A stretch of 63,953 bases of DNA, counting the filler, from Collodictyon triciliatum (taxonomy: Eukaryota): NCBI GenBank assembly GCA_043381765.1. It is 7 parts of 7 records of this genome, joined end to end, with 100 filler letters (N's around TTAATTAATTAA, not from the genome) between each part and the next. Parts side by side here need not be neighbours in the genome. Positions count along the whole stretch, not along the records: positions 1 to 9,373 come from JBHJMP010003044.1; 6 more parts are not named here. One strand, 5' to 3'. This document shows positions 1 to 43,578 of this stretch, piece after piece. Both the position numbers and the translations under genes were made by a program. A model generated the notes under the pieces. The model was not told the DNA's origin and made no database searches. It saw nothing but the letters and a program-made list of their open reading frames with translations. How positions within the stretch are numbered: the stretch's first letter is position 1; the number at the start of each line of letters is the position of its first letter.

Positions 1-75
<75 letters not shown>

Positions 76-127
76 GCTGTGATTGTTGTCTTCTACTACC
101 AGCGCAACACAACCACTTTTATTGTAG

Positions 128-2880
128 AGCTCAAAAGTGCTTCCGATGGAATCGCACGTCCCACACTCCCACTATCCTGTATGGATCGCCACTATTGAAG
201 CGAACGTCCCACGCGGAGAGGACCGCTATCTGGTGCACACACAGGATCATGTGGTGTCTGTTATGGGTATGTTTTGGCTTTTGATTTATTATCCGTATTT
301 TATTTGTCACTCAACTAGGAATTATTTTCTGAATAACCAATTCGCTTTGCAGCGGGCTCTCTTTCTTTAACAAAATAACGTACAAAAAAAAAAAAACATG
401 TTAGATGCTCATTTCTGTTGTTACTAGTCATTTCACGCGGTCATTATATCTATGTTCCTATTTTACACATGATCAGCAGTTGAAAATGTCATTTGTCCCA
501 CTATATACCAACCTGTATAGATGGTCATGGCGGTTCCCTTGTGGTGGATTATGTCGAAAAGAATCTTGTAGAGACCTTGAAAGTTCAATTAGAGGCAACA
601 AATGGGTCAGTATCTTTGTTCTGATTTTTCTCTCTCTCAGAAGTCCCCATTCACGCCGAAATCACCTAATCATACTGATATGATTTGTGGCGCGACTTAT
701 GTATTGATATGTGCATTCAGGAACATTGCTCAAGCACTTACTGACACTTACCGAAGTCTGGACGAGCAAATGCTGAAGAATTTGGATATCAACGAAAAGT
801 CGATGTATTCTGGTACTTGCATAAATACACTGTATGTGGATACGAAAGACGGGAGGATTTACATCGCAAATCTTGGTGACTGTCGATCTGTGGTGGGGCA
901 AAGGAGACAGCATACGTATGTGTATTGCACACAGATAGCGAGAAATAATTTATTTCATTTTTATTTGTCATTCTCCAACAGTGGGAGAGATAGAGAGGGG
1001 AGAAAAAAAGACTTCAGCTTCACTTAGTGAAATCTTCTGGTTGTAGACCGGAACCGCAGTACGAAGCCTTCCCACTGTCTGTCGACCACAATTGCTACAA
1101 TCCCGAAGAAAAAAAGAAAACAATAGCCCGCTCAGGAGATAGAAATGCAATTCGGTGCAGCCCCCAGGATATAAGAGCTGGTTTGCTCATTACGATAAAA
1201 TGCATTGATTGTTTCGTGCTATTTTCCAAGATTTGTTTACGAGCAATATGTGGTTTAGGTAACTCAAAGGCGATACCGAGAGTGGCAGGATATTTAGCTG
1301 TGACGAGGAGTTTGGGAGATTTTTATCTGAAAGAGCAGCAACATGCAAAGTTTGTTCGTGTTCTTGATAATACATATTATTAGGACATATAATTAATATA
1401 CTTTATTTGCTTAAAGTCATTCTACGAAATTATGTACTCATTGTTAAAATCCTTTCTTCTACAGGAAGGCCCAGCTCCGTTTTTTCCCCTACCTAACATC
1501 CGAACCTGACATAACTGTCCACACAATTGATCCTGGCATGGATTTTATCGTGATGGCCTCTGACGGTCTATGGGAACACATGAACTCTCAGGAGGTATGT
1601 TTCGCATCCTAGCGATTAATAATTCTTTCTGTTTTTTTTTTTTTTTGGCGTATGAGCTTGCTCATTTTCAATTCGATATGAATAATAACAACATACGTAC
1701 CGCCGTAGGTTGTTGATTTTCTAACACCTGTGGTCGATGATTTGCTGAAGAAAATATTTGAGTACATTATCATCTTTTGAAAAATAATTTAAATACGAAT
1801 CCCGTTTATGATATCTTGTTATTACAATTTATACAAATGCATCAGCAACACCCCCTCCTCCTCATATATACACATCCTCCCCAAACCTATTTAGGGAGAA
1901 TCAAGGAGAGGATGCAACAGGAAATGATAGCTCCACAGATGAAATCGAAAATATGGTGTCAAATTCAGAGCTTATCCTCCAAGCTATTCAATCTCCCCCT
2001 GTTGCGATCAGCTATGAACAAGGAAGGCGACTAATCCAAAGTCTGAACATCGAGCCCCTGATGCAAGAGGTCAAGGCACCTGCTTGCACCCCCATGGCCA
2101 TTTCAACCGACCCATCGGAGTCTTCGTTCAGCGCAACATCTGTTAGACTTTTGACTATCTTTCATCACCATATGAACCCCAAACATTTTTATTTCTTTTT
2201 ATCTAATTATACACACCCACTTCTCCTCTGGAGGGAAGCTAATATATGAATGTTCTTCAAATAGTCTGCTCCCAGCTCTGTAGCCAGCTCGCCCCCAGAG
2301 CCGCAGTGTAGCAAATCCATTGTTTCTGGTGAATTGCACTCAGACCCAACATCATGTAAGGCTTCAGCATTATATAAATTCACTTGTCCGCTTCTACAAT
2401 TGCTTATGCATAGCTGTTCACATGGTGAATGAAACCATTTCATTTTTCTCAAAGTACCAGAAAACCCTTCTCCTATGGGAGGAAATCAACTGGAGACCAA
2501 CAGTGAAATCTCTCCACTTTCTCCTCCTTTACCACCTTCCCCAGCAAATGCTTCTGTACAATCACAAGCCCGCCTGCCGAGAAGATTGCGCCCCAATATA
2601 GATGTATGGCCCTGTCTTAAACTTGAAAGGCATAAATACCTGACAAGTATGTCTCACACTAATATATGTTGCCAACTGACGTTGCCCTGCCTCTATGGGG
2701 TTTCCCTCCTTCACCCAGGCAACTACCCTGCAAAATCCCTCTGCCATGCTGCTCGAAGAAGTGCTTCGCAGAATAGCCCAAAAAAGCCACAGCACGGTAG
2801 CTATGTTGAAAAGCCTTCCACCAGGAGCTCGGCGCTATCTATTTGATGATATAACCATTGTGGTTCTTCTAATCGCTTAA
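128..2880 (+). CDS. PP2C/PPM-type protein phosphatase, about 11 exons, 5' end probably outside the window
   Basis: GT-AG spliced exons give PPM motifs in order: RGEDR, VSVM-DGHGG (521), SGTC, IYIANLGDCRSVVG, LSVDH, RVAGYLAVTRSLGDFYLK, PYLTSEPDI, FIVMASDGLWEHM, and the final exon RRYLFDDITIVVL* (stop at 2880). Confidence 0.93.
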
Positions 2881-3658
2881 GAACACCCCTTGATTTATTT
2901 TTTTTTTTTTTTAAAAAAAAAAAAACGGAAACAAAGAATATTATAATGTAAGCTGTTTCTTATCTTTTTTTTCCTTATCTTTTTTTTCTTCTCTCTCATT
3001 CTGATCTATTGTGAAAGAGAAAGGAGTTTATGAAAAGTTCCAGTCCCGTGTGCACAATCATTTTTGTGCACTTTTTTTTAACCACACCTATGTCGCATTT
3101 ACGATATTTTTGTTTCTTTCCTACGTTTGGGATTTTATTCGTTAAGTTTTGCGCCACTACATGGATAATTAACAGAATCTTTTTTTTCTCCACTAATGCC
3201 AAATAACTCACATAAATGAATAAACAAAATGATAATCAAAATAATACTTGCCCGGGAGTGTAAATGGTGATACCCTTGCTCGATTAATTAAAATACATAA
3301 AACGGCCAATGAAAGCCGTATAGCGGTTATTTATTTTTGGTTTTTCATTGTCTGTTGCAGGTCGTAACAGACGGGTTAGGTATCTTTCTCCTTTTAATCC
3401 CATGTACAATATTAAGCACAATTAATACTATTGCATGATGCAAAGAGAATTTTTATAAATAATCACGGCACTTTATATTAATTTTCCAGATTTGTTTATA
3501 AGGTTTTCTTTTTCCGTTTTGCTGTTTTATTGGCTTTTCTTTCCATTTTTTCTGTTTTTATTTTTAAGAGAAGAAAAGGAAACTAAAAGAGAAGCAAAGA
3601 AGGAAAGAATCCAAGGATTTGAGTTGAATAACACTCTATTTCGCGTCGCAGTACGGCC

Positions 3659-3772
3659 ATGAAAAAAATCCTTGTTGCAAACCGTGGAGAGATCGCAGTA
3701 CGCATCCTTCGTGCCTGTCAGGTTGATTTTACACCCACGATTCCTTGTGATCCTAGAGTCTTTTTATTATTT

Positions 3773-3807
<35 letters not shown>

Positions 3808-6800
3808 TTATTATTTATTATTATTATTATTTCTTTTGATTTTCTAGTCCTTTGCAGCATCTCCTTTCGCTCACCCGAATCCATTCCTTGCACTGAATTT
3901 TTGTATGGTTTCTTTTCAGCAGTGAGTTTTTTTTTTTGGAAAACTTTCCAAGTTGAGAGGCAAGACAGTAACTGCGAAAAATATTTGTAATAGGAGGCAG
4001 GCATCCTCTCCGTAGCAATATTTTCTTTGTCAGATAACGATAGTCTTCACCGGAGCTTCGCGAGCGAGTCTTATCTCTTGGTCAGATAACTTCATGTGTT
4101 TTTTCTTTCAAAAATTTCTCAATTATCACTTGATGGTAGCTTCTTTTTTTTTTTTTTTATAAAAAAATACAATAAAATAACACTTCGAGTATTATTGTTG
4201 CTTATATTAGAGCGACACTATTGATGGTCCGGCTGCATACCTCGATATCAATGCTATCATATCTATAGCAAAACGGTCGAACGCTGACGCAATCCATCCC
4301 GGTATTTCATATTATCATATCATCTTCTCGAGATTTTGAGCAATCCAGGAAATATATAAATTTCTGGTCTACTAATTCCAAAGGCTATTTTGAAAATGAA
4401 ATCTAAAACATGACACAGGATATGGATTCCTTTCAGAAAATCCTGATTTTGCCGAGGTACTAATTTATTCATTTTCAATATTTGTACTCGCTATCTCGAA
4501 ATGAAATGATCAAGAAAAACCAGTCAATTGTCTATGTCAAGCCTTTGAATCAAATGGAGCGAGAAATATCCCAGAAGCCAGCACCGTCTTATAGGAGATG
4601 AGAAAAACTAAATCAACGGATGAACTTAAAATATCATTCTATAGGCTTGTAGAGCTGCCGGCATCAAATTCATCGGGCCGTGTCATTCAGCAATCAAATC
4701 TCTGGGCGATAAGGTTTTACCTCGTTAAATCAAGGGAAATTTATATAATTTCCATGATATTCGATTAAAACACTTGCGTTCTCTCCTTTTGCAACATATT
4801 TTTGTGAGTGACCTGTCAGTATGCAACAAAACTCAATCCCATCAATAGGTAGAAGCGAAGAAAATAGCGGAGAAACTCAATATCCCGGTGCTTCCATTTA
4901 CCATAGCACAAGAATCACTCACTCCCGAGCAAGTACTTATTATGCTTTTTTTTTCTTTGTTCTTCCTTCCCTTTTGTGTAATATGATGTAGGGTTTGGCT
5001 TTGAAAGACTTTTTTTGCTATTCAATATTTTTTTTTGGTGCAACATAGTTCGATATGGTTGTCAAAACTAAAATATCTAGAAATTATAATCCAATGGAGA
5101 AAGTAGGACCTAATTTCTTTTTTGGCTTGGCCTATTAACAGAGAGAATACATCCAAAGACAAATCGGATTCCCTGTTCTATTGAAGGCTGCTATGGGTGG
5201 CGGTGGCCGTGGAATCCGAGTGGTTCACAACGAGGCAGATTTATCAGAGTCATTCGCTCGCTGTTCATCTGAAGCCAAAAAATTCTTTGGAGATGGGCGA
5301 GTTTTCGTCGAAAAGTACGTTTATTCGATGATTATAAATCTTGAAAAGATGGGTAATTAGAGAGAAAGAAGTAAGGAGATGGGTATATCCAGAATTATTT
5401 TAATTTCTTAGTAATTCAAAAATAAATTAATGTCAATATGAATTTATTCTCGACATTTATGCGATCCTATCTTATTCGATTGTCTTGCTTTTTTTTTTTT
5501 TAATCCTGCTCGCTTGAATATCCTTGATATAGATATATTGCCATGGCGAAACATATTGAAGTGCAAGTTATTGGGGATGGAATTCGAGTAGTACATTTGT
5601 ATGACCGTGATTGTACGGCTCAAGTAATCTTTTAACTCTGTAACTTATTTGACGTGTCAGATGACATTCTCTTTAATCTATGTAATCGTTTGATAAATAT
5701 GTTTGGATGAAATCTTGTCCCGGTATTGCATGACACTTTCGAGTTAACTTGTTAGAGACGACAGCAAAAAGTTGTGGAATTTGGTCCCTCTTTTCACCAA
5801 AATGAAGATATGTATCAACATGCCTTGGTTCTTGCGAAATCTGTCGAATACACCAGCGCTGGTACAGTTGAATTTATCGTTGACCTCGAATCAGGAAAGT
5901 ATTATTTCATGGAAATGAACCCTCGTCTGCAGGTAATTTGCGGTTCTTCTGAATGATTTACAGCATCATTTTTGACACATATTCACTTGTCCCTTCGCTA
6001 TTCTTATTTAGCGACTTGAAAATTAAAGTATCGTTGTTTCAGCACCAAATTTTCCATTCTTTTTTTAATAATTTGTTGATTATCATAGGTAGAGCATACA
6101 GTAACTGAGCTTATCACTGGTGTGGACATAGTTAAAACACAAATTTCAATCGCTCAAGGACAAACACTCCAGGCACTTATTTTCTATTCGGTCGTCAAAA
6201 CTCACTCAACATACTTTTGGAAGTCCTAGTATATGCACGATTTTCTCACATGCCTCGATATATCATTTTATCTACGTGTACTTTTATGAATATAACTAAG
6301 TTTCCATTTATTTACTTCTTTGAGTTTCATACTCACTAAAAAGTCACAATAAATAAATCACCAAATAGTCTTTGGGTCTCATCGACTCTTCAGGGAATTC
6401 TTTGATATCAACTAATGGCTTTGCAATCCAATGCCGTGTATTGGCAGAAAATGCAGAGACTGGCTTCACTCCAACCACGGGTATCTTATTTTATTTTTTT
6501 TACATCAAGGAAAAGAAGAATATTGCCTCTTCGATTTTACCTTCTTTCTTGCCTTGGTTTTCCATAATTTGAGTATTTCCATAAAGGTAATCGAAATGAT
6601 GCCGATAATTTTACATGCATATATACTTTCACGTCTAACAGTACATTCCAGGAATAATCGAGCAGTACGCTCCACCAACAGGTGCTTCTCTTTTTCCTTT
6701 TTTGACAGCCTCGCTTTAGCATTTTCTGTTTATTTTTACAAACTGTTCATTTTTCAGTCGAAGCTGACTGTAATTTTTTTATTTTAAGAGTGCAATTTAC

Positions 6801-8704
6801 TTTATAATATCAATTATTTGCTGATAGACTTTGGTTTCATGGATTTTAACCAACACAATCACGCAGCCATACTCTTGCAACTAGCCTAATATACGCATTC
6901 ATAGGCCCTGGTGTTCGAGTTGATTCGTTTATAAAGATTGGACAACAAGTCACATCTCAATATGACCCTCTTCTCCTTAAAGTAAATACATGTTTGTTCA
7001 ATTTACTGGCTTGTTGTTAATGATTTAGACGCTATCAGTGATGTGATGTTTTGACAAGGACATTGCTTTATACGGATCATTCATCTTAAAATATTTTCCT
7101 TAAAAAAAACCCCCCACTGGGGTTTATTGTGTATTTTACCAAGGTTATATGCTGGGATAAAACTTTCCACGAATGCGTGCGTCGTACTCTGGGAGCTTTG
7201 AGGGAGCTACAGATATATGGTGTTAGAACAAACAAAAGCTTTCTGATGAGCCTTTTGTCATACACGCCCTTCCTCGACCAGCATTTGAATACAACAACCT
7301 TGGAAAACAAAATCGTAATGATTGTTTGCATATATGTAAATCTGATTGAAACCCAGATTTTGTTATAGTTTATAATATTAATGATAATAGACTTTGCTGA
7401 TCTTAAATTTTCGTAAATCTATCCATTTCCTCGAAAATACACTTCTGCGTTAGAGCGATATCGCAGCAACACAACCGAATGTATCTCAACCCTCATTTCA
7501 TCAAGACTTCAACCACCATACCATCTTCCCTGGTGACCAATTTGCATTAAGCTCTGGAGAAGGCCATGTTTGAATATTTTGACCCAATGTCGAGATATTC
7601 CATTTTTTTCATAGAATATCTGAGACTAATACATTCATATTCTTTTTGATAACCCTGTTTACTAATTGAGGCCTATTAATCAGTCTCATCGTGTGTCTAT
7701 CCGTGACTTGAGGAAGGACCAGGATGGGGGTGATAATGTCCTTTCAGTAGAACTCGATGGAAATTACAAGTCATTCACATTTGCCAGGACAGGCGATGCA
7801 AAATCAGTGGGCAATCGGTCGGTGAATACTTAAGATGAGCAATATATATATATATATATTACACCGCAACATGAAGTATTTTTATGAAGACAAATAATCT
7901 CTGAAGATTCGATGTTAACACTCTTGTTGATGTCATTCCTGTCTTGTGTAACAAATATTTAGTTTGGCTGGGAAAGTACGTGAAAAATGCTCCAGAGGGA
8001 ACATAGGCCATGTCGGAGCCCCATATGATGGAGCTGTTGTTGAGGTAAAGCGAGGCATTCCTAGCAAATCTCTGTGCAATTAACCGGATGTATCGGCCCC
8101 GACGCTGTGTTTAGCATTATCTGTTTTACGAATCAATATCCTTGTTCTGCTGTTTCAATTATTGATATTATACTTCAGTCTACATCAATTTGCAACATGC
8201 GGGTTGTTTAACTCCTCCTCCTCCTCCTCCTTCCTGAGATATCATTTATGGTGTGTAAGAATGTGTAATCAATAACAAAATGCAATTGTTCAACGGCAGG
8301 TTTTGAAGCCCATCGGCAGTCGTGTGAAAAAGGGGGACGGTCTAGTTGTTGTTTCGGCTATGAAAATGGAAACAGTTCTATCTTCTGTTATAGACGGATT
8401 GGTAAACCCTTAGATCGACCTTGTCTTCAGTGGCCAAACGATGTTTTGTCTTTCCCAAAGTTTACTCCTAGTTGTCGCTTTATATAATTGTCTATCGAAC
8501 GCGCGCTCGACTTACCCCCCTTTTTTTTTCTTCTCTTTTTTGGTTAAAAATCCAGAAACATATAATAGCAAATGCAAGAGACATACTTGAAATACAAACA
8601 CACTCACGATACTATATCAGATAACGAGGGTATGCGTATCAGCCGGGGATATCATCACACAAAATGATTTGTTGGTTGATGTCACGCCAGGTTCCAAGCT
8701 GTGA
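3659..8704 (+). CDS. Biotin carboxylase plus biotinyl (BCCP) domain protein, pyruvate-carboxylase-like, with no carboxyltransferase domain and a C-terminal SKL
   Basis: About 19 exons: MKKILVANRGEIAVRI, AIHPGYGFLSEN, FIGP, GFPVLLKAAMGGGGRG, HIEVQ, HLYDRDCTAQRRQQKVVE, EMNPRLQVEHTVTE, GFAIQCRV, GPGVRVDS, YDPLLLK, GVRTN, then GHVGAPYDG...SAMKMET (biotin Lys at about 8363) and DLLVDVTPGSKL*. Confidence 0.92.
6173..6368 (+). other. Probable GC-AG intron in the carboxylase gene
   Basis: CAG|GCACTT...AAATAG|TCT joins AQGQTLQ to SLGL in frame, matching the usual G-x-x-L-x-x-LGL spacing. The next GT donor would insert 6 extra residues. Confidence 0.65.
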
Positions 8705-9278
8705 CCAATGCCCAGGCTTGTGTTGGGTAAAGAAAAGAAAAGAAGAGAAAAGAAAAGAAGAGAAGAGAAAAGAAAAGAAAAGAAAAGAAAAGAAGCAGCA
8801 ACAAACAAATAAACAAGCAAATAAATAAATAAATCACAGCCTCCTCGTCTACAAACACCATGCCTCTATCACCAGGGCAGTTGCCCAACATAACAAAAGG
8901 AAATAAAATTACAGAGACACTATCCTTAATAAAATATCGTATTGTCCCATCGCCAAGGAAATAAGGATTTATGTTCCTTAATTTCAGCTATTATCTTTTG
9001 TATATTATTAAGCGTCAAATCATGGTAATTAGTTAAGAGGAGGGTTAGAAGTGTATGGAAAATGTTTCTTGTAACGAGACAATCGTAATAGAGGAGAAAC
9101 ACTGTCGTTTATCATGACCAATGCTCAACTAGGTTGCTTCATTAGTCTTTTTGGAAGGACAGATGTAATTGCAGAATGCCAGTCCATTCCAGAAGATTTT
9201 AGCGCAATTATATGAAACACTATCCATCCATCGTAAATTTCATATAAGTTCATCGAAAACAATATGTGTGTATATTGT

Positions 9279-9373
9279 ACATACATACATACATACATAC
9301 ATACATACATACATACATACATACATACATACATACATACATACATACATACATACATACATACATACATACA
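9279..9373. repeat. (ACAT)n microsatellite
   Basis: Perfect tetranucleotide run ending at the contig break. Confidence 0.95.
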
Positions 9374-9473
9374 NNNNNNNNNNNNNNNNNNNNNNNNNNN
9401 NNNNNNNNNNNNNNNNNTTAATTAATTAANNNNNNNNNNNNNNNNNNNNNNNNNNNNNNNNNNNNNNNNNNNN
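9374..9473. other. Assembly linker N44-TTAATTAATTAA-N44 (also at 24553-24652, 34019-34118, 43479-43578, 52938-53037, 62394-62493; plain N gap at 19755-20200)
   Basis: An identical 100-nt cassette with stops in all six frames, always next to microsatellite or homopolymer runs. Confidence 0.97.
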
Positions 9474-31807: not shown

Positions 31808-33582
31808 TTATTTGTCCTCCAACGCCTTCTTGATGGCAGCAAAGACCCTGAACTCGTCAGGGACATACACAGGCTCAAAGACAAGAGGGAAGGGCGTGTC
31901 GTAGCCGCAGACACGCAGGATGGGTGCTTCCAAGTGGTAGAAGCATCGCTCCTGAATGGAGGCTGCGATTTCGGCACCGAATCCGCTGGTCACGGGAGCT
32001 TCGTGGCTGACAATCAGGCGACCTTTGAGGGCATATCAAGTCATCTCACTGCGTAAGGAACAATCTCTCATTTTTATACAAATATGTATCATCTTTTGCT
32101 TTTTGCTTCTCTTTTCCGTATGCAGAGGAGACATGTTCATTTGTTCAAAGAAAAAACCCCATCACGATATCTTCAAGTGCAAATCACCAACCTGTCTTTT
32201 TCACGGAGCTCTCAACCAAGTCCACATCCCACGGAAGAAGTGTACAAAGGTCAATAAGTTCACACGAGATTCCTACCTCTCTGGCCATGTTGCAAGCCTT
32301 CTCTAGGACATGAATCTATGAACAAAGCTGCTATTAATGTCAGACTCAAAATATATACATTCCAAGCAAAAGGGTCTTTGAATTTTTCATCTTGCTGCAG
32401 CCCTCGAAGATGATTGTGGAGAATCATGATGGCCTGTCAATCATATGAATTTTCATATTGATACCTGGGCACCCCAGCCAACTATGGTCACATCAAACCC
32501 CTCGCGAATGATATCTCCTTTTCCCAGCGGGATTGTGTAGTCGCAAAGGGGCACTTGTGCGACAGATGACCGGTAAATCCACTTGGGCTCTAAGAACACA
32601 ACGGGGTCTTGCTCACGGATGGAAGCCAGCAAGAGACCCTTGGCCATGGCTGGGTTTCGCGGAACAACCACCTATAACCAGCATGTGTATATTATCAAAT
32701 ATACATTTTTTTGGGGATAAGAGGTTTTTGTTTTCCTCTTCTTCTTTTTCTTCTTTAGGGTATTGTCTCGTTCATACCTTCAGTCCGGGGGTATGTGTGA
32801 AATACGCTTCAGGCGACTGGGAATGATAATGCGCACCGTGACCAACAGCACCATAAGGAGCGCGGAAAGTAAGCTTCCCGACATTAAATTCATTTCCTGA
32901 GCGATATCGGTACTTTGCAGCCTCATTTACGATCTAATCCATGAGGAGATATCGAGTATTCGAAAGTAATTTTAAGTGAAATTGAACGAAAAAAATTGCT
33001 TGATATGTATCCTTATCTACAAAGATAAAAAAATATATACAACTCTAGGTTTCACTGACATAAGATTTATCATAGACATTTCGATTGATTCCTAAAAAAA
33101 AATATATATATTAATGATAATTTATTGAATCACTTGGTCAAAAGCTGGAAAAATGTAATCGGCAAATTGTATTTCAGCGATGGCAGTGGCACCTTCAGAG
33201 GCCAAACCTATGGCAAATCCAGCGATACCTACGTTATTAAAGCAGCTTTTGAGAAGAGTAAGAAAATTTGCTCAGACACTAAAACCTGCTCACAGACATA
33301 CAGAGATTGAATATTCAGACAAAATGTAAGGGGAAAAAAGAGAGGGAATAGTATGTCCATAATGAAATATTGCTTTTGGATGATACCTTGTTCGCACAAT
33401 GGCGTGTTGAACACTCTGTGAGCTCCAAACTTTTCTCTCAGATCTACAGTGCAACGAAAGACACCACCAAAGGCAACATCCTCGCCGAAGATGCATGCAG
33501 TTGGGTCACTTTCAAGAGCGATTCTCATGGCATCATTCACAGCTTGGAAGAGATTCATTTTCTTTGTGTTGTTTATGTCATC
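31808..33582 (-). CDS. BCKDHB: Branched-chain alpha-keto acid dehydrogenase E1 beta subunit; 5' exon(s) probably lost in the gap
   Basis: Six exons: [118 protein letters not shown]. Confidence 0.97.
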
Positions 33583-34018: not shown

Positions 34019-34118
34019 NNNNNNNNNNNNNNNNNNNNNNNNNNNNNNNNNNNNNNNNNNNNTTAATTAATTAANNNNNNNNNNNNNNNNNNNNNNNNNN
34101 NNNNNNNNNNNNNNNNNN

Positions 34119-43342: not shown

Positions 43343-43578
43343 AAGTCAGTTATGTGATGGCATATCCCTACTATCGGGATGCTGACCAGGTTTATGGATG
43401 AAAAACCAATAAAAAAAACCAATAAAAAAAACCAATAAAAAAAACCAATAAAAAAAACCAATAAAAAAAACCAATAAANNNNNNNNNNNNNNNNNNNNNN
43501 NNNNNNNNNNNNNNNNNNNNNNTTAATTAATTAANNNNNNNNNNNNNNNNNNNNNNNNNNNNNNNNNNNNNNNNNNNN

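Follow-up and report, generated by a model that had tools for sequence, protein, structure and literature searches.

Within the window, i.e. the whole 63,953-nt stretch of Collodictyon triciliatum DNA analyzed here, a first-pass annotation described a biotin-dependent carboxylase subunit that has no mitochondrial presequence and ends in SKL, and proposed a peroxisomal carboxylation system. SKL is the prototypical PTS1, and proteins can enter peroxisomes in the folded state. To our knowledge, mitochondria, cytosol and plastids are the only locations from which biotin-dependent carboxylases have been described. The locus raises the question of whether such an enzyme could be directed to peroxisomes, which type of carboxylase it derives from and whether it would work alone. 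Our best explanation, to which we give an even chance, is that the gene encodes a peroxisome-targeted, catalytically intact subunit made of biotin carboxylase (BC) and a biotin carrier domain (BCCP), which stems from a pyruvate carboxylase (PC)-type ancestor and needs a separate carboxyltransferase (CT).

Gene structure and expression

The gene occupies positions 3659-8704 on the plus strand of a 9.4-kb unplaced contig. Its 19 exons (Table 1) join into an open CDS of 1863 nt, and the 620-aa product starts with MKKILVANRGE at ATG 3659 and ends in TPGSKL-stop. Of the 18 introns, 17 have GT-AG borders and one has GC-AG borders, and the GC content is 45.0% in exons versus 31.3% in introns. In the last exon, the acceptor tatcag is followed by ITRVCVSAGDIITQNDLLVDVTPG-SKL-stop, of which TCC AAG CTG TGA takes up 8693-8704 (SKL codons 8693-8701, stop codon TGA 8702-8704). 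Exons 1-13 and the 5' end were modelled on gap-free colinearity with P0001, a protein of Diphylleia rotans, and RNA covers exons 14-19 only. A first gene model with a GT-AT intron 7 was dropped, and the GT-AG solution yields an identical protein. An extension of exon 10 by 7 aa, to a GT donor at 6194, was also dropped, as the alignment with P0001 is gap-free at this site, and the GC-AG intron results. Comparison of the segments of the window with each other revealed no similarity, and a window-wide duplication was therefore rejected as the origin of its regularly spaced N blocks.

A spliced cDNA contig of 658 nt with a template-switch-oligo-like loose end was found in public run X1, one run listed for the gene (share 0.06) and not on record as RNA. 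Its pieces (7247-7314, 7454-7567, 7684-7816, 7962-8042, 8298-8400 and 8620-8727) are connected by five GT..AG joints that agree with exons 14-19, i.e. with the last five introns. A single C>T at 8002 in exon 17, read as a third codon position (AAC>AAT), is synonymous. The last piece shows 0 differences to the genome, reads through SKL-stop and extends beyond the stop codon, in agreement with the annotated SKL end of the terminal exon. The further suggestion that an alternative donor at 8691 might switch targeting was not borne out, as the single available cDNA contig contains no splice there. The gene is real and expressed.

Table 1 Exons and sequence features of the gene, with positions in the window
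Feature	Position	Strand	Evidence
Exon 1	3659..3721	+	Start codon ATG 3659-3661; same Met in the Diphylleia orthologue
Exon 2, BC N-terminal domain	3994..4080	+	GT-AG borders; gap-free alignment with P0001
Exon 3, BC N-terminal domain	4211..4301	+	Pfam Biotin_carb_N, E 7.5e-5
Exon 4	4419..4456	+	Gene model
Exon 5	4645..4713	+	Gene model
Exon 6	4849..4932	+	Gene model
Exon 7, ATP-grasp, glycine-rich loop	5142..5314	+	Pfam CPSase_L_D2, E 2e-15; border revised to a GT-AG intron, protein unchanged
Exon 8	5533..5623	+	Gene model
Exon 9, ATP-grasp catalytic core	5756..5932	+	Pfam CPSase_L_D2, E 1.5e-12; 68% identity with P0001
Exon 10	6089..6172	+	Followed by the sole GC-AG intron, 6173-6368; border based only on gap-free colinearity with P0001
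Exon 11	6369..6480	+	Gene model
Exon 12	6652..6681	+	Gene model
Exon 13, BC C-terminal domain	6905..6981	+	Pfam Biotin_carb_C, E 1.8e-4
Exon 14, BC domain end	7144..7314	+	Pfam Biotin_carb_C, E 2e-9; cDNA over 7247-7314, joined to 7454
Exon 15, poorly conserved linker	7454..7567	+	cDNA joints 7314>7454 and 7567>7684; without Pfam family
Exon 16, linker	7684..7817	+	cDNA joint; matches four predicted beta-strands of the P0001 model
Exon 17, linker end and BCCP start	7963..8044	+	cDNA joints
Exon 18, BCCP with AMKM	8300..8401	+	Pfam Biotin_lipoyl, E 1.4e-6; biotinyl-lysine codon AAA 8363-8365 = K581; cDNA joints
Exon 19, BCCP end, tail TPG, SKL, stop	8621..8704	+	cDNA over 8620-8727, 0 differences, runs on
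CCAG/GTTCCA, proposed alternative donor	8687..8696	+	GT 8691-8692; no cDNA joint there

Domain composition and catalytic positions

P0001, a 617-aa EukProt protein with a 'complete' transcript ORF, aligns with the 620-aa protein from end to end (350/620, 56% identity, 3 gap positions) and has the same start Met and the same SKL end. It is the only full-length relative found, and conservation as described below is based on this one comparison of two members. A word-index search with the C-terminal 178 aa of P0001 retrieved, from 1058 candidates, only P0001 itself and one partial PC. The known occurrence of the family is so far confined to Diphylleia-like protists (Diphyllatea, CRuMs), and CRuMs are a deep, little-studied eukaryote lineage. 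A different contig of the window positions the host beside Diphylleia.

The 620-aa protein consists, in order, of BC, a poorly conserved linker of ~95 aa and BCCP with an AMKM motif. Pfam matched 7 of 16 exon translations (Biotin_carb_N, CPSase_L_D2 in three exons, Biotin_carb_C in two, and Biotin_lipoyl). The N-terminal, ATP-grasp and C-terminal domains of BC are present, and NCBIfam and PDB matches span residues 1-447 of P0001. The BC and BCCP matches, together with AMKM, confirm the annotation as a biotin-dependent carboxylase subunit. The CT domain (HMGL-like plus PYC_OADA) is absent between BC and BCCP of the 620-aa model, and the cDNA contig links exons 14-19 directly, with no CT-coding stretch between BC and BCCP. 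Moreover, the precomputed Pfam list of P0001 contains no HMGL-like, PYC_OADA or carboxyl-transferase family. CT is not on the same chain, as had been proposed, and a separately encoded CT partner would therefore be needed.

Across 52 homologues, 95 columns reach at least 90% conservation. Of these, 91 are kept in each orthologue, and the five conserved positions changed across both orthologues are I>V, D>S, E>D, S>T and Q>E/N. The biotinyl lysine K581 of AMKM lies 39 residues before the C-terminus (family median 37, range 33-53, n=177). The best reading of these positions is that the BC-BCCP protein is probably catalytically intact. It is quite unlikely, in our estimate, that a duplicated PC gene lost CT, has no carboxylase partner and survives here as a decaying or non-catalytic relic, serving for example as a regulator or a biotin store. 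Such a relic would fit the long stem branch of the pair in the BC tree (0.74 changes per column) and the rarity of the family, for which an exhaustive phmmer search gave no second full-length cluster (best non-self 444 bits vs self 1368.8). It would also fit the lack of a CT partner among 51 long ORFs on the other contigs of the window, a weak test as these contigs are unrelated. However, both species keep the 91 conserved positions with conservative changes and retain the AMKM biotinylation motif, the ORF is intact across 19 exons and complete in Diphylleia rotans too, and the gene is expressed and correctly spliced over exons 14-19.

Relationship to pyruvate carboxylase

All of the 19 best PDB sequence matches of P0001 are pyruvate carboxylases. 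The match to human PC (468.6 bits) covers BC over residues 1-446 and includes a second stretch, 514-611, aligned with PC 1083-1177. In NCBIfam, the two PC equivalogs score highest for P0001, with 651.6 and 569 bits, and AccC follows with 499. Both PC scores miss the cut-offs of the models TIGR01235 / NF009554 (651.6 vs 965, and 569 vs 1114.45). The best matches of the C-terminal 171 aa of the model are full-length PCs as well, just before and within BCCP. Andalucia godoyi mitochondrial PC (P0139) shares 45% identity over 77 aa of this part, P0125, P0138 and P0048 align with it over 116-145 aa, and PC fragments have 47-48% identity to the 620-aa model.

In the BC tree, the orthologue pair (support 100) belongs to an 18-row group that contains all 10 full-length PCs and has an SH-aLRT value of 92, below the 95 mark. 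The pair is placed outside a 29-row group (support 95) in which 25 of the 26 ~650-aa BC-BCCP alpha-type rows are found, among them those named MCC or PCC alpha by their sources. The stem of the pair is long, and the BC tree settles no place among the PCs. Judged by sequence, both halves of the protein are closest to PC, not to PCC or MCC alpha subunits. Owing to this affinity of both halves, the originally suggested disposal of propionyl- or branched acyl-CoA is without specific support.

In the linker, the two orthologues share only 26% identity. With the linker alone, phmmer against about 270 fetched proteins gave nothing significant except the orthologue, and no significant match to BT or to PT, the tetramerisation/allosteric domain of PC. 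Colinear matches to the PC region preceding BCCP are weak and non-significant (E about 1-9). A PCC/MCC-type acyl-CoA carboxylase alpha subunit relocated to peroxisomes, where it would dispose of propionyl- or branched acyl-CoA, is in our view rather unlikely, even though the protein has the same BC-linker-BCCP architecture as alpha subunits. Over the whole chain, Foldseek ranks human MCC and PCC alpha highest (8j7d_A, E 1.7e-60; 7ybu_A), a whole-model match that is dominated by BC and BCCP and so does not discriminate PT from BT. The language-model features of the linker (Atlas) are nearest to BT-domain clusters (0.88, under the 0.9 lead level), and P0220 and P0251, metagenomic single-chain BC-BCCP-acyl-CoA-CT enzymes, share the 18-row group with the pair. 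Opposed to this assignment are the sequence affinity of both halves to PC, the placement outside the alpha-type group and the absence of a Pfam match to the BT domain (PF18140 / PF21139) in the exon translations or P0001. Moreover, the linker corresponds to four beta-strands predicted at 479-518 of the P0001 model (block mean pLDDT 51-73), not to the larger barrel of the BT domain architecture.

C-terminal SKL and predicted localization

The NRGE motif begins at residue 8 in the 620-aa protein and in its orthologue, and an in-frame TAA (3629-3631) lies 30 nt upstream of ATG 3659. The named mitochondrial PC, MCC and PCC examples examined carry 17-141 residues ahead of NRGE. The protein thus has no N-terminal extension, as first described. 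At the other end, conservation of SKL was checked, and the only orthologue also ends in SKL, which is therefore present in 2 of 2 known members.

Given the composition of the protein, a C-terminal SKL would arise by chance with p = 3.5e-4, and any [SAC][KRH][LM] with p = 2.2e-3. None of the 269 fetched BC-family homologues ends in a PTS1-like tripeptide, and this holds for all 177 among them whose BCCP is C-terminal. The orthologues agree at 62% of positions in BC, 60% in BCCP and 26% in the linker, SKL is identical at 3/3 positions, and the residues preceding it (P-G/A) are likewise kept. Since the linker has fallen to such low identity and no homologue is PTS1-like, SKL looks to be under selection. 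SKL lies ~2-3 residues past the usual BCCP end, and if it is counted as part of the domain (60% identity), the chance of its retention by descent is ~0.2.

Alternatively, the protein might be a cytosolic BC-BCCP subunit with a separate CT and an inherited, unused SKL, for example one hidden by the BCCP fold or within an oligomer, a possibility that we consider doubtful. The tail after the biotinyl lysine is short (39 residues vs the family median of 37), the last residues of the model have fairly high confidence and form a helical turn instead of a free tail, and conservation of SKL is supported by one orthologue only, all of which would suit an unused signal. In contrast, solved carboxylases show BCCP as a mobile and exposed domain. 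The absence of PTS1-like ends in the homologues, the canonical SKL retained in both species despite the divergence of the linker, and the kept P-G/A also speak against an unused signal.

Proposed pathway and implications

We infer peroxisomal import from the sequence, and likewise the activity of the protein and the existence and nature of a CT partner. In the peroxisomal reading, a PC-type ancestor would have lost its CT domain to give BC, a short linker and BCCP. Cytosolic synthesis would yield a protein that lacks a mitochondrial presequence and becomes biotinylated at K581, and the PTS1 receptor would recognize the conserved SKL, so that the folded protein could be imported into peroxisomes. 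There, BC would carboxylate the biotin of its own BCCP using ATP and bicarbonate, and BCCP would pass the carboxyl group to the separately encoded CT subunit.

A conserved PTS1 on an apparently intact BC-BCCP protein would predict ATP-dependent CO2 fixation in the peroxisome, and the protein may represent the first case of a biotin enzyme at work in a peroxisome. Peroxisomal carboxylation would extend the metabolism known from the organelle and would depend on ATP and bicarbonate in the peroxisome as well as on import of a holo-biotin protein. A more specific scenario, which we regard as unlikely, is that Diphyllatea split PC and relocated both parts to peroxisomes, BC-BCCP via SKL and a PC-type, separately encoded CT via its own signal or by piggy-back, with oxaloacetate made inside. 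If this were true, oxaloacetate would feed a glyoxylate-cycle or gluconeogenic, glycosome-like microbody, and such a biotin-dependent, ATP-driven carboxylation would be without precedent in peroxisomes.

Comparison with known systems

Like PTS1-bearing peroxisomal matrix proteins, the 620-aa protein has a canonical SKL at its extreme C-terminus, conserved in the orthologue and present in the mRNA. In contrast, full-text literature searches found no biotin-dependent carboxylase among peroxisomal proteins, and peroxisomes of Diphyllatea or of any other CRuMs did not come up in the literature searched. The passages of PMC13343957 and PMC8611851 on these enzymes describe non-peroxisomal PC, MCC and PCC.

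With PCC and MCC alpha subunits (BC-BT-BCCP; PDB 7ybu, 8j7d), the protein shares domain order, a similar length, the need of a separate CT (beta) subunit and the best whole-chain structural matches. However, its BC lies outside their clade, no BT family is detected, and its linker is shorter and poorly conserved between the orthologues. Moreover, PCC and MCC reside in mitochondria, and the examples examined carry presequences of 45-93 residues.

In the two-subunit (alpha4beta4) PC and 2-oxoglutarate carboxylase of bacteria and archaea (PDB 1ulz, 7kct), BC and CT are also on different polypeptides, and the BC similarity is high (388 bits for 1ulz_A and 381.7 bits for 7kct_A). These enzymes are prokaryotic and have no organelle signal, and their BCCP is fused to the CT subunit, whereas that of the 620-aa protein is fused to BC.

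Single-chain PC (human mitochondrial PC, PDB 7wta; P0139) has the closest BC by sequence, aligns with the C-terminus and has AMKM in common. In contrast to it, the 620-aa protein lacks the whole CT domain (about 550 aa) and a mitochondrial presequence and ends in SKL, and the NCBIfam scores of P0001 fall under the PC cut-offs. For carboxylase evolution, the family would thus represent a natural experiment, a PC without its CT domain that has nevertheless kept 91/95 conserved positions.

Gene model and transcript of the carboxylase

The carboxylase gene (3659-8704, +) was modelled by reading 3600-8710 and joining exons by their coordinates in a script, which gave a 1863-nt CDS of 19 exons encoding 620 aa, with a GC content of 45.0% in exons and 31.3% in introns. 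Translation starts at ATG 3659 (MKKILVANRGE) with an in-frame TAA 30 nt upstream, bearing out the first-pass annotation, which had placed the start there with no N-terminal extension, and the last exon (8621-8704) terminates in DLLVDVTPGSKL-stop, again just as that annotation read it. After one border correction that left the protein unchanged, 17 of the 18 introns are GT-AG and one is GC-AG; an alternative GT donor 21 nt downstream in the latter would give 7 extra residues. Exons 14-19 are covered by a 658-nt cDNA contig from X1, the sole public run found for this stretch, and its five GT..AG joints coincide exactly with model introns 14-18. Exons 1-13 are supported mainly by an end-to-end alignment to P0001, the Diphylleia rotans orthologue (350/620 identical, 56%; 3 gap positions, none at exon junctions).

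The cDNA contig continues across the SKL codons and past the stop into an A-rich 3′ region, confirming the SKL-stop end proposed earlier. No splice joint at CCAG|GT (8691) was reported in this one contig, so the alternative donor suggested there finds no support. The contig has a single mismatch to the window, a C>T at 8002 read as a synonymous third codon position, and carries a loose end resembling a template-switch oligo at 7247. The 3′ UTR (8727-8800) contains an (AAAAG)n-like tract where the contig leaves the genome sequence; this departure may reflect internal oligo-dT priming or length polymorphism.

Relatives and affinity to pyruvate carboxylase

A word-index search with exon 9 retrieved 153 proteins at E ≤ 0.001 among 337 candidates, the best being P0001 (617 aa; EukProt EP00002, transcript ORF marked 'complete'), with 68% identity within that exon. 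Both proteins begin with the same residues and end in SKL. When P0001 was run exhaustively with phmmer against 1.84 billion representatives, 48,408 proteins matched at E ≤ 0.001 but no second full-length relative appeared: P0001 itself scored 1368.8 bits and the runner-up 444 bits, over the biotin carboxylase (BC) region only. The last 178 aa of P0001 retrieved only itself and one partial pyruvate carboxylase (PC) among 1058 candidates. Because these searches gave no second full-length relative, the family is known from two organisms, and the protein is so far confined to Diphyllatea.

Sequence comparison of P0001 with the PDB gives PCs for all 19 best matches, headed by human mitochondrial PC (468.6 bits), which aligns in two stretches, the BC and residues 514-611 against PC 1083-1177. 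PC equivalogs rank first and second among NCBIfam models (651.6 and 569 bits, both under cut-off), followed by AccC (499), a ranking as in true PC fragments and unlike that of most ~650-aa alpha-type proteins scanned. The model BC shares 47-48% identity with the PC fragments P0122 and P0124. For the last 171 aa of the model, the best matches are to the ends of full-length PCs, including the Andalucia godoyi mitochondrial PC. For 55 BC domains, a quick maximum-likelihood tree with arbitrary root puts the orthologue pair (support 100; long stem, 0.74) in an 18-row group that contains every full-length PC (SH-aLRT 92, short of the 95 mark, a placement to group level), and outside a 29-row group (support 95) that includes 25 of the 26 ~650-aa alpha-type rows. 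Given these BC and C-terminal affinities, the PCC/MCC-type role in acyl-CoA disposal envisaged in the first-pass annotation is not supported. Whole-chain Foldseek searches matched MCC/PCC alpha subunits and PCs alike.

Domain architecture

Pfam matches were found in 7 of 16 exon translations: Biotin_carb_N, CPSase_L_D2 (three exons), Biotin_carb_C (two) and Biotin_lipoyl. Each orthologue keeps 91 of 95 conserved columns (at least 90% conserved among 52 homologues) with conservative substitutions, and by sequence the protein appears to be a functional biotin carboxylase with its biotin carrier domain (BCCP). The 620-aa model has no carboxyltransferase (CT) domain, in line with the earlier proposal; its introns (116-272 nt) are too short to hide one, and exons 14-19 are joined directly in the cDNA with no CT between. 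Among roughly 270 fetched proteins, the interdomain linker has no significant sequence match except the orthologue. In the AlphaFold model of P0001 (mean pLDDT 90.6), this linker forms four beta-strands (479-518; ten-residue block means 51-73 across the strands) flanked on either side by disordered stretches. Judged by language-model features, the linker leans weakly towards BT domains (0.88, a lead only), and it may be a PT or BT domain in reduced form.

The C-terminal SKL

SKL is the canonical C-terminal peroxisome import tag (PTS1). Given the protein's own composition, the chance of a C-terminal SKL is 3.5e-4, and none of 269 fetched homologues ends in [SAC][KRH][LM]. P-(G/A)-SKL ends both orthologues, while linker identity falls to 26%; at the linker's neutral-like rate, three residues would be kept with a chance of ~0.02. 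The carboxylase also lacks an N-terminal extension, whereas NRGE is preceded by 17-141 residues in those named mitochondrial PCs, MCCs and PCCs that were checked. However, the tail exceeds the usual length by only some 2-3 residues (39 past the biotinyl lysine vs a median of 37), the chance of SKL being kept rises to ~0.2 at the 60% identity of the BCCP, and its conservation rests on an n=1 comparison. The sequence carries the predicted peroxisomal signal first proposed, shared with P0001.

Window composition and host placement

The window consists of several unplaced contigs separated by 44 N + TTAATTAATTAA + 44 N and is not a single locus. Comparison of its segments with one another found no similarity; gene neighbourhood across the linkers is meaningless because the contigs are unrelated in sequence. 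The first contig (1-9373) opens with a 74-base T run (1-74), ends in a (CATA)n microsatellite (9279-9373) and carries the carboxylase gene and, immediately upstream, a PP2C-like gene whose long C-terminal part is low-complexity and Pro/Ser-rich. The PP2C ORF on another contig is intronless, which is unusual for the window. The N-terminal BCKDH E1-beta exon (33382-33558) shares 97% identity with Diphylleia rotans and 92% with Rigifila ramosa; therefore the source organism, on the assumption that all contigs are from one organism, is by sequence a CRuMs protist close to Diphylleia.

Coordinates of features in the window and in the carboxylase protein
Feature	Position	Strand	Remark
Contigs, in order			9373, 15079, 9366, 9360, 9359, 9356, 1460 bases
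Filler linkers	9374-9473, 24553-24652, 34019-34118, 43479-43578, 52938-53037, 62394-62493		
PP2C-like phosphatase gene, multi-exon	about 128-2880	+	Pfam PP2C matches ORFs 593-1024, 994-1380
Single non-GT intron	6173-6368	+	donor CAG|GCACTT; border set by gap-free alignment to P0001
cDNA contig blocks	7247-7314, 7454-7567, 7684-7816, 7962-8042, 8298-8400, 8620-8727		last block spans SKL codons and stop
BC domain	residues about 1-449		
Interdomain linker	residues about 450-544		
BCCP	residues 545-614		AMKM motif, K581
C-terminal tail	after BCCP		TPGSKL
316-aa uninterrupted ORF, full PP2C domain	21552-22499	+	PF00481, E 1.2e-40; other contig
BCKDH (branched-chain 2-oxoacid dehydrogenase) E1-beta exons	31811-32035, 33382-33558	-	other contig
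REJ-domain ORF	49227-49646	+	E 1.6e-6; other contig
PX-domain ORF	57965-58312	+	E 1.6e-15; other contig

Proposed role and comparison with known carboxylases

Taken as its sequence reads, the protein derives from a PC, has BC and BCCP but no CT, and bears a conserved predicted PTS1. The full explanation we favour, a PTS1-imported, PC-derived BC-BCCP subunit served by a separate CT, has in our judgement about an even chance of being right. The protein would be made and biotinylated in the cytosol, imported as a folded holo-protein via PTS1, carboxylate its own biotin using ATP and bicarbonate, and pass the carboxyl to a CT encoded by a separate gene. By inference, this partner could be PC-type, acyl-CoA-type or another, at roughly one third each; the 51 long ORFs on the window's other contigs included no CT (a weak test). 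The first reading is thus supported in part: the predicted peroxisomal signal and the missing CT stand, and the PCC/MCC-type role and the alternative donor find no support.

Full-text literature searches gave no case of a peroxisomal biotin or pyruvate/propionyl-CoA carboxylase with PTS1, and nothing on peroxisomes of Diphylleia or CRuMs. P0220 (1141 aa) and P0251 (647 aa, truncated) are metagenomic single-chain BC-BCCP-acyl-CoA-carboxyltransferase enzymes, whose BC domains cluster in the tree with PCs and the Diphyllatea pair, not with ordinary alpha subunits. PC and MCC serve as endogenous biotinylated controls in an excerpt of one study (PMC13343957); an excerpt of another (PMC8611851) states no location in peroxisomes for PC and gives PCC a signal for import into mitochondria.
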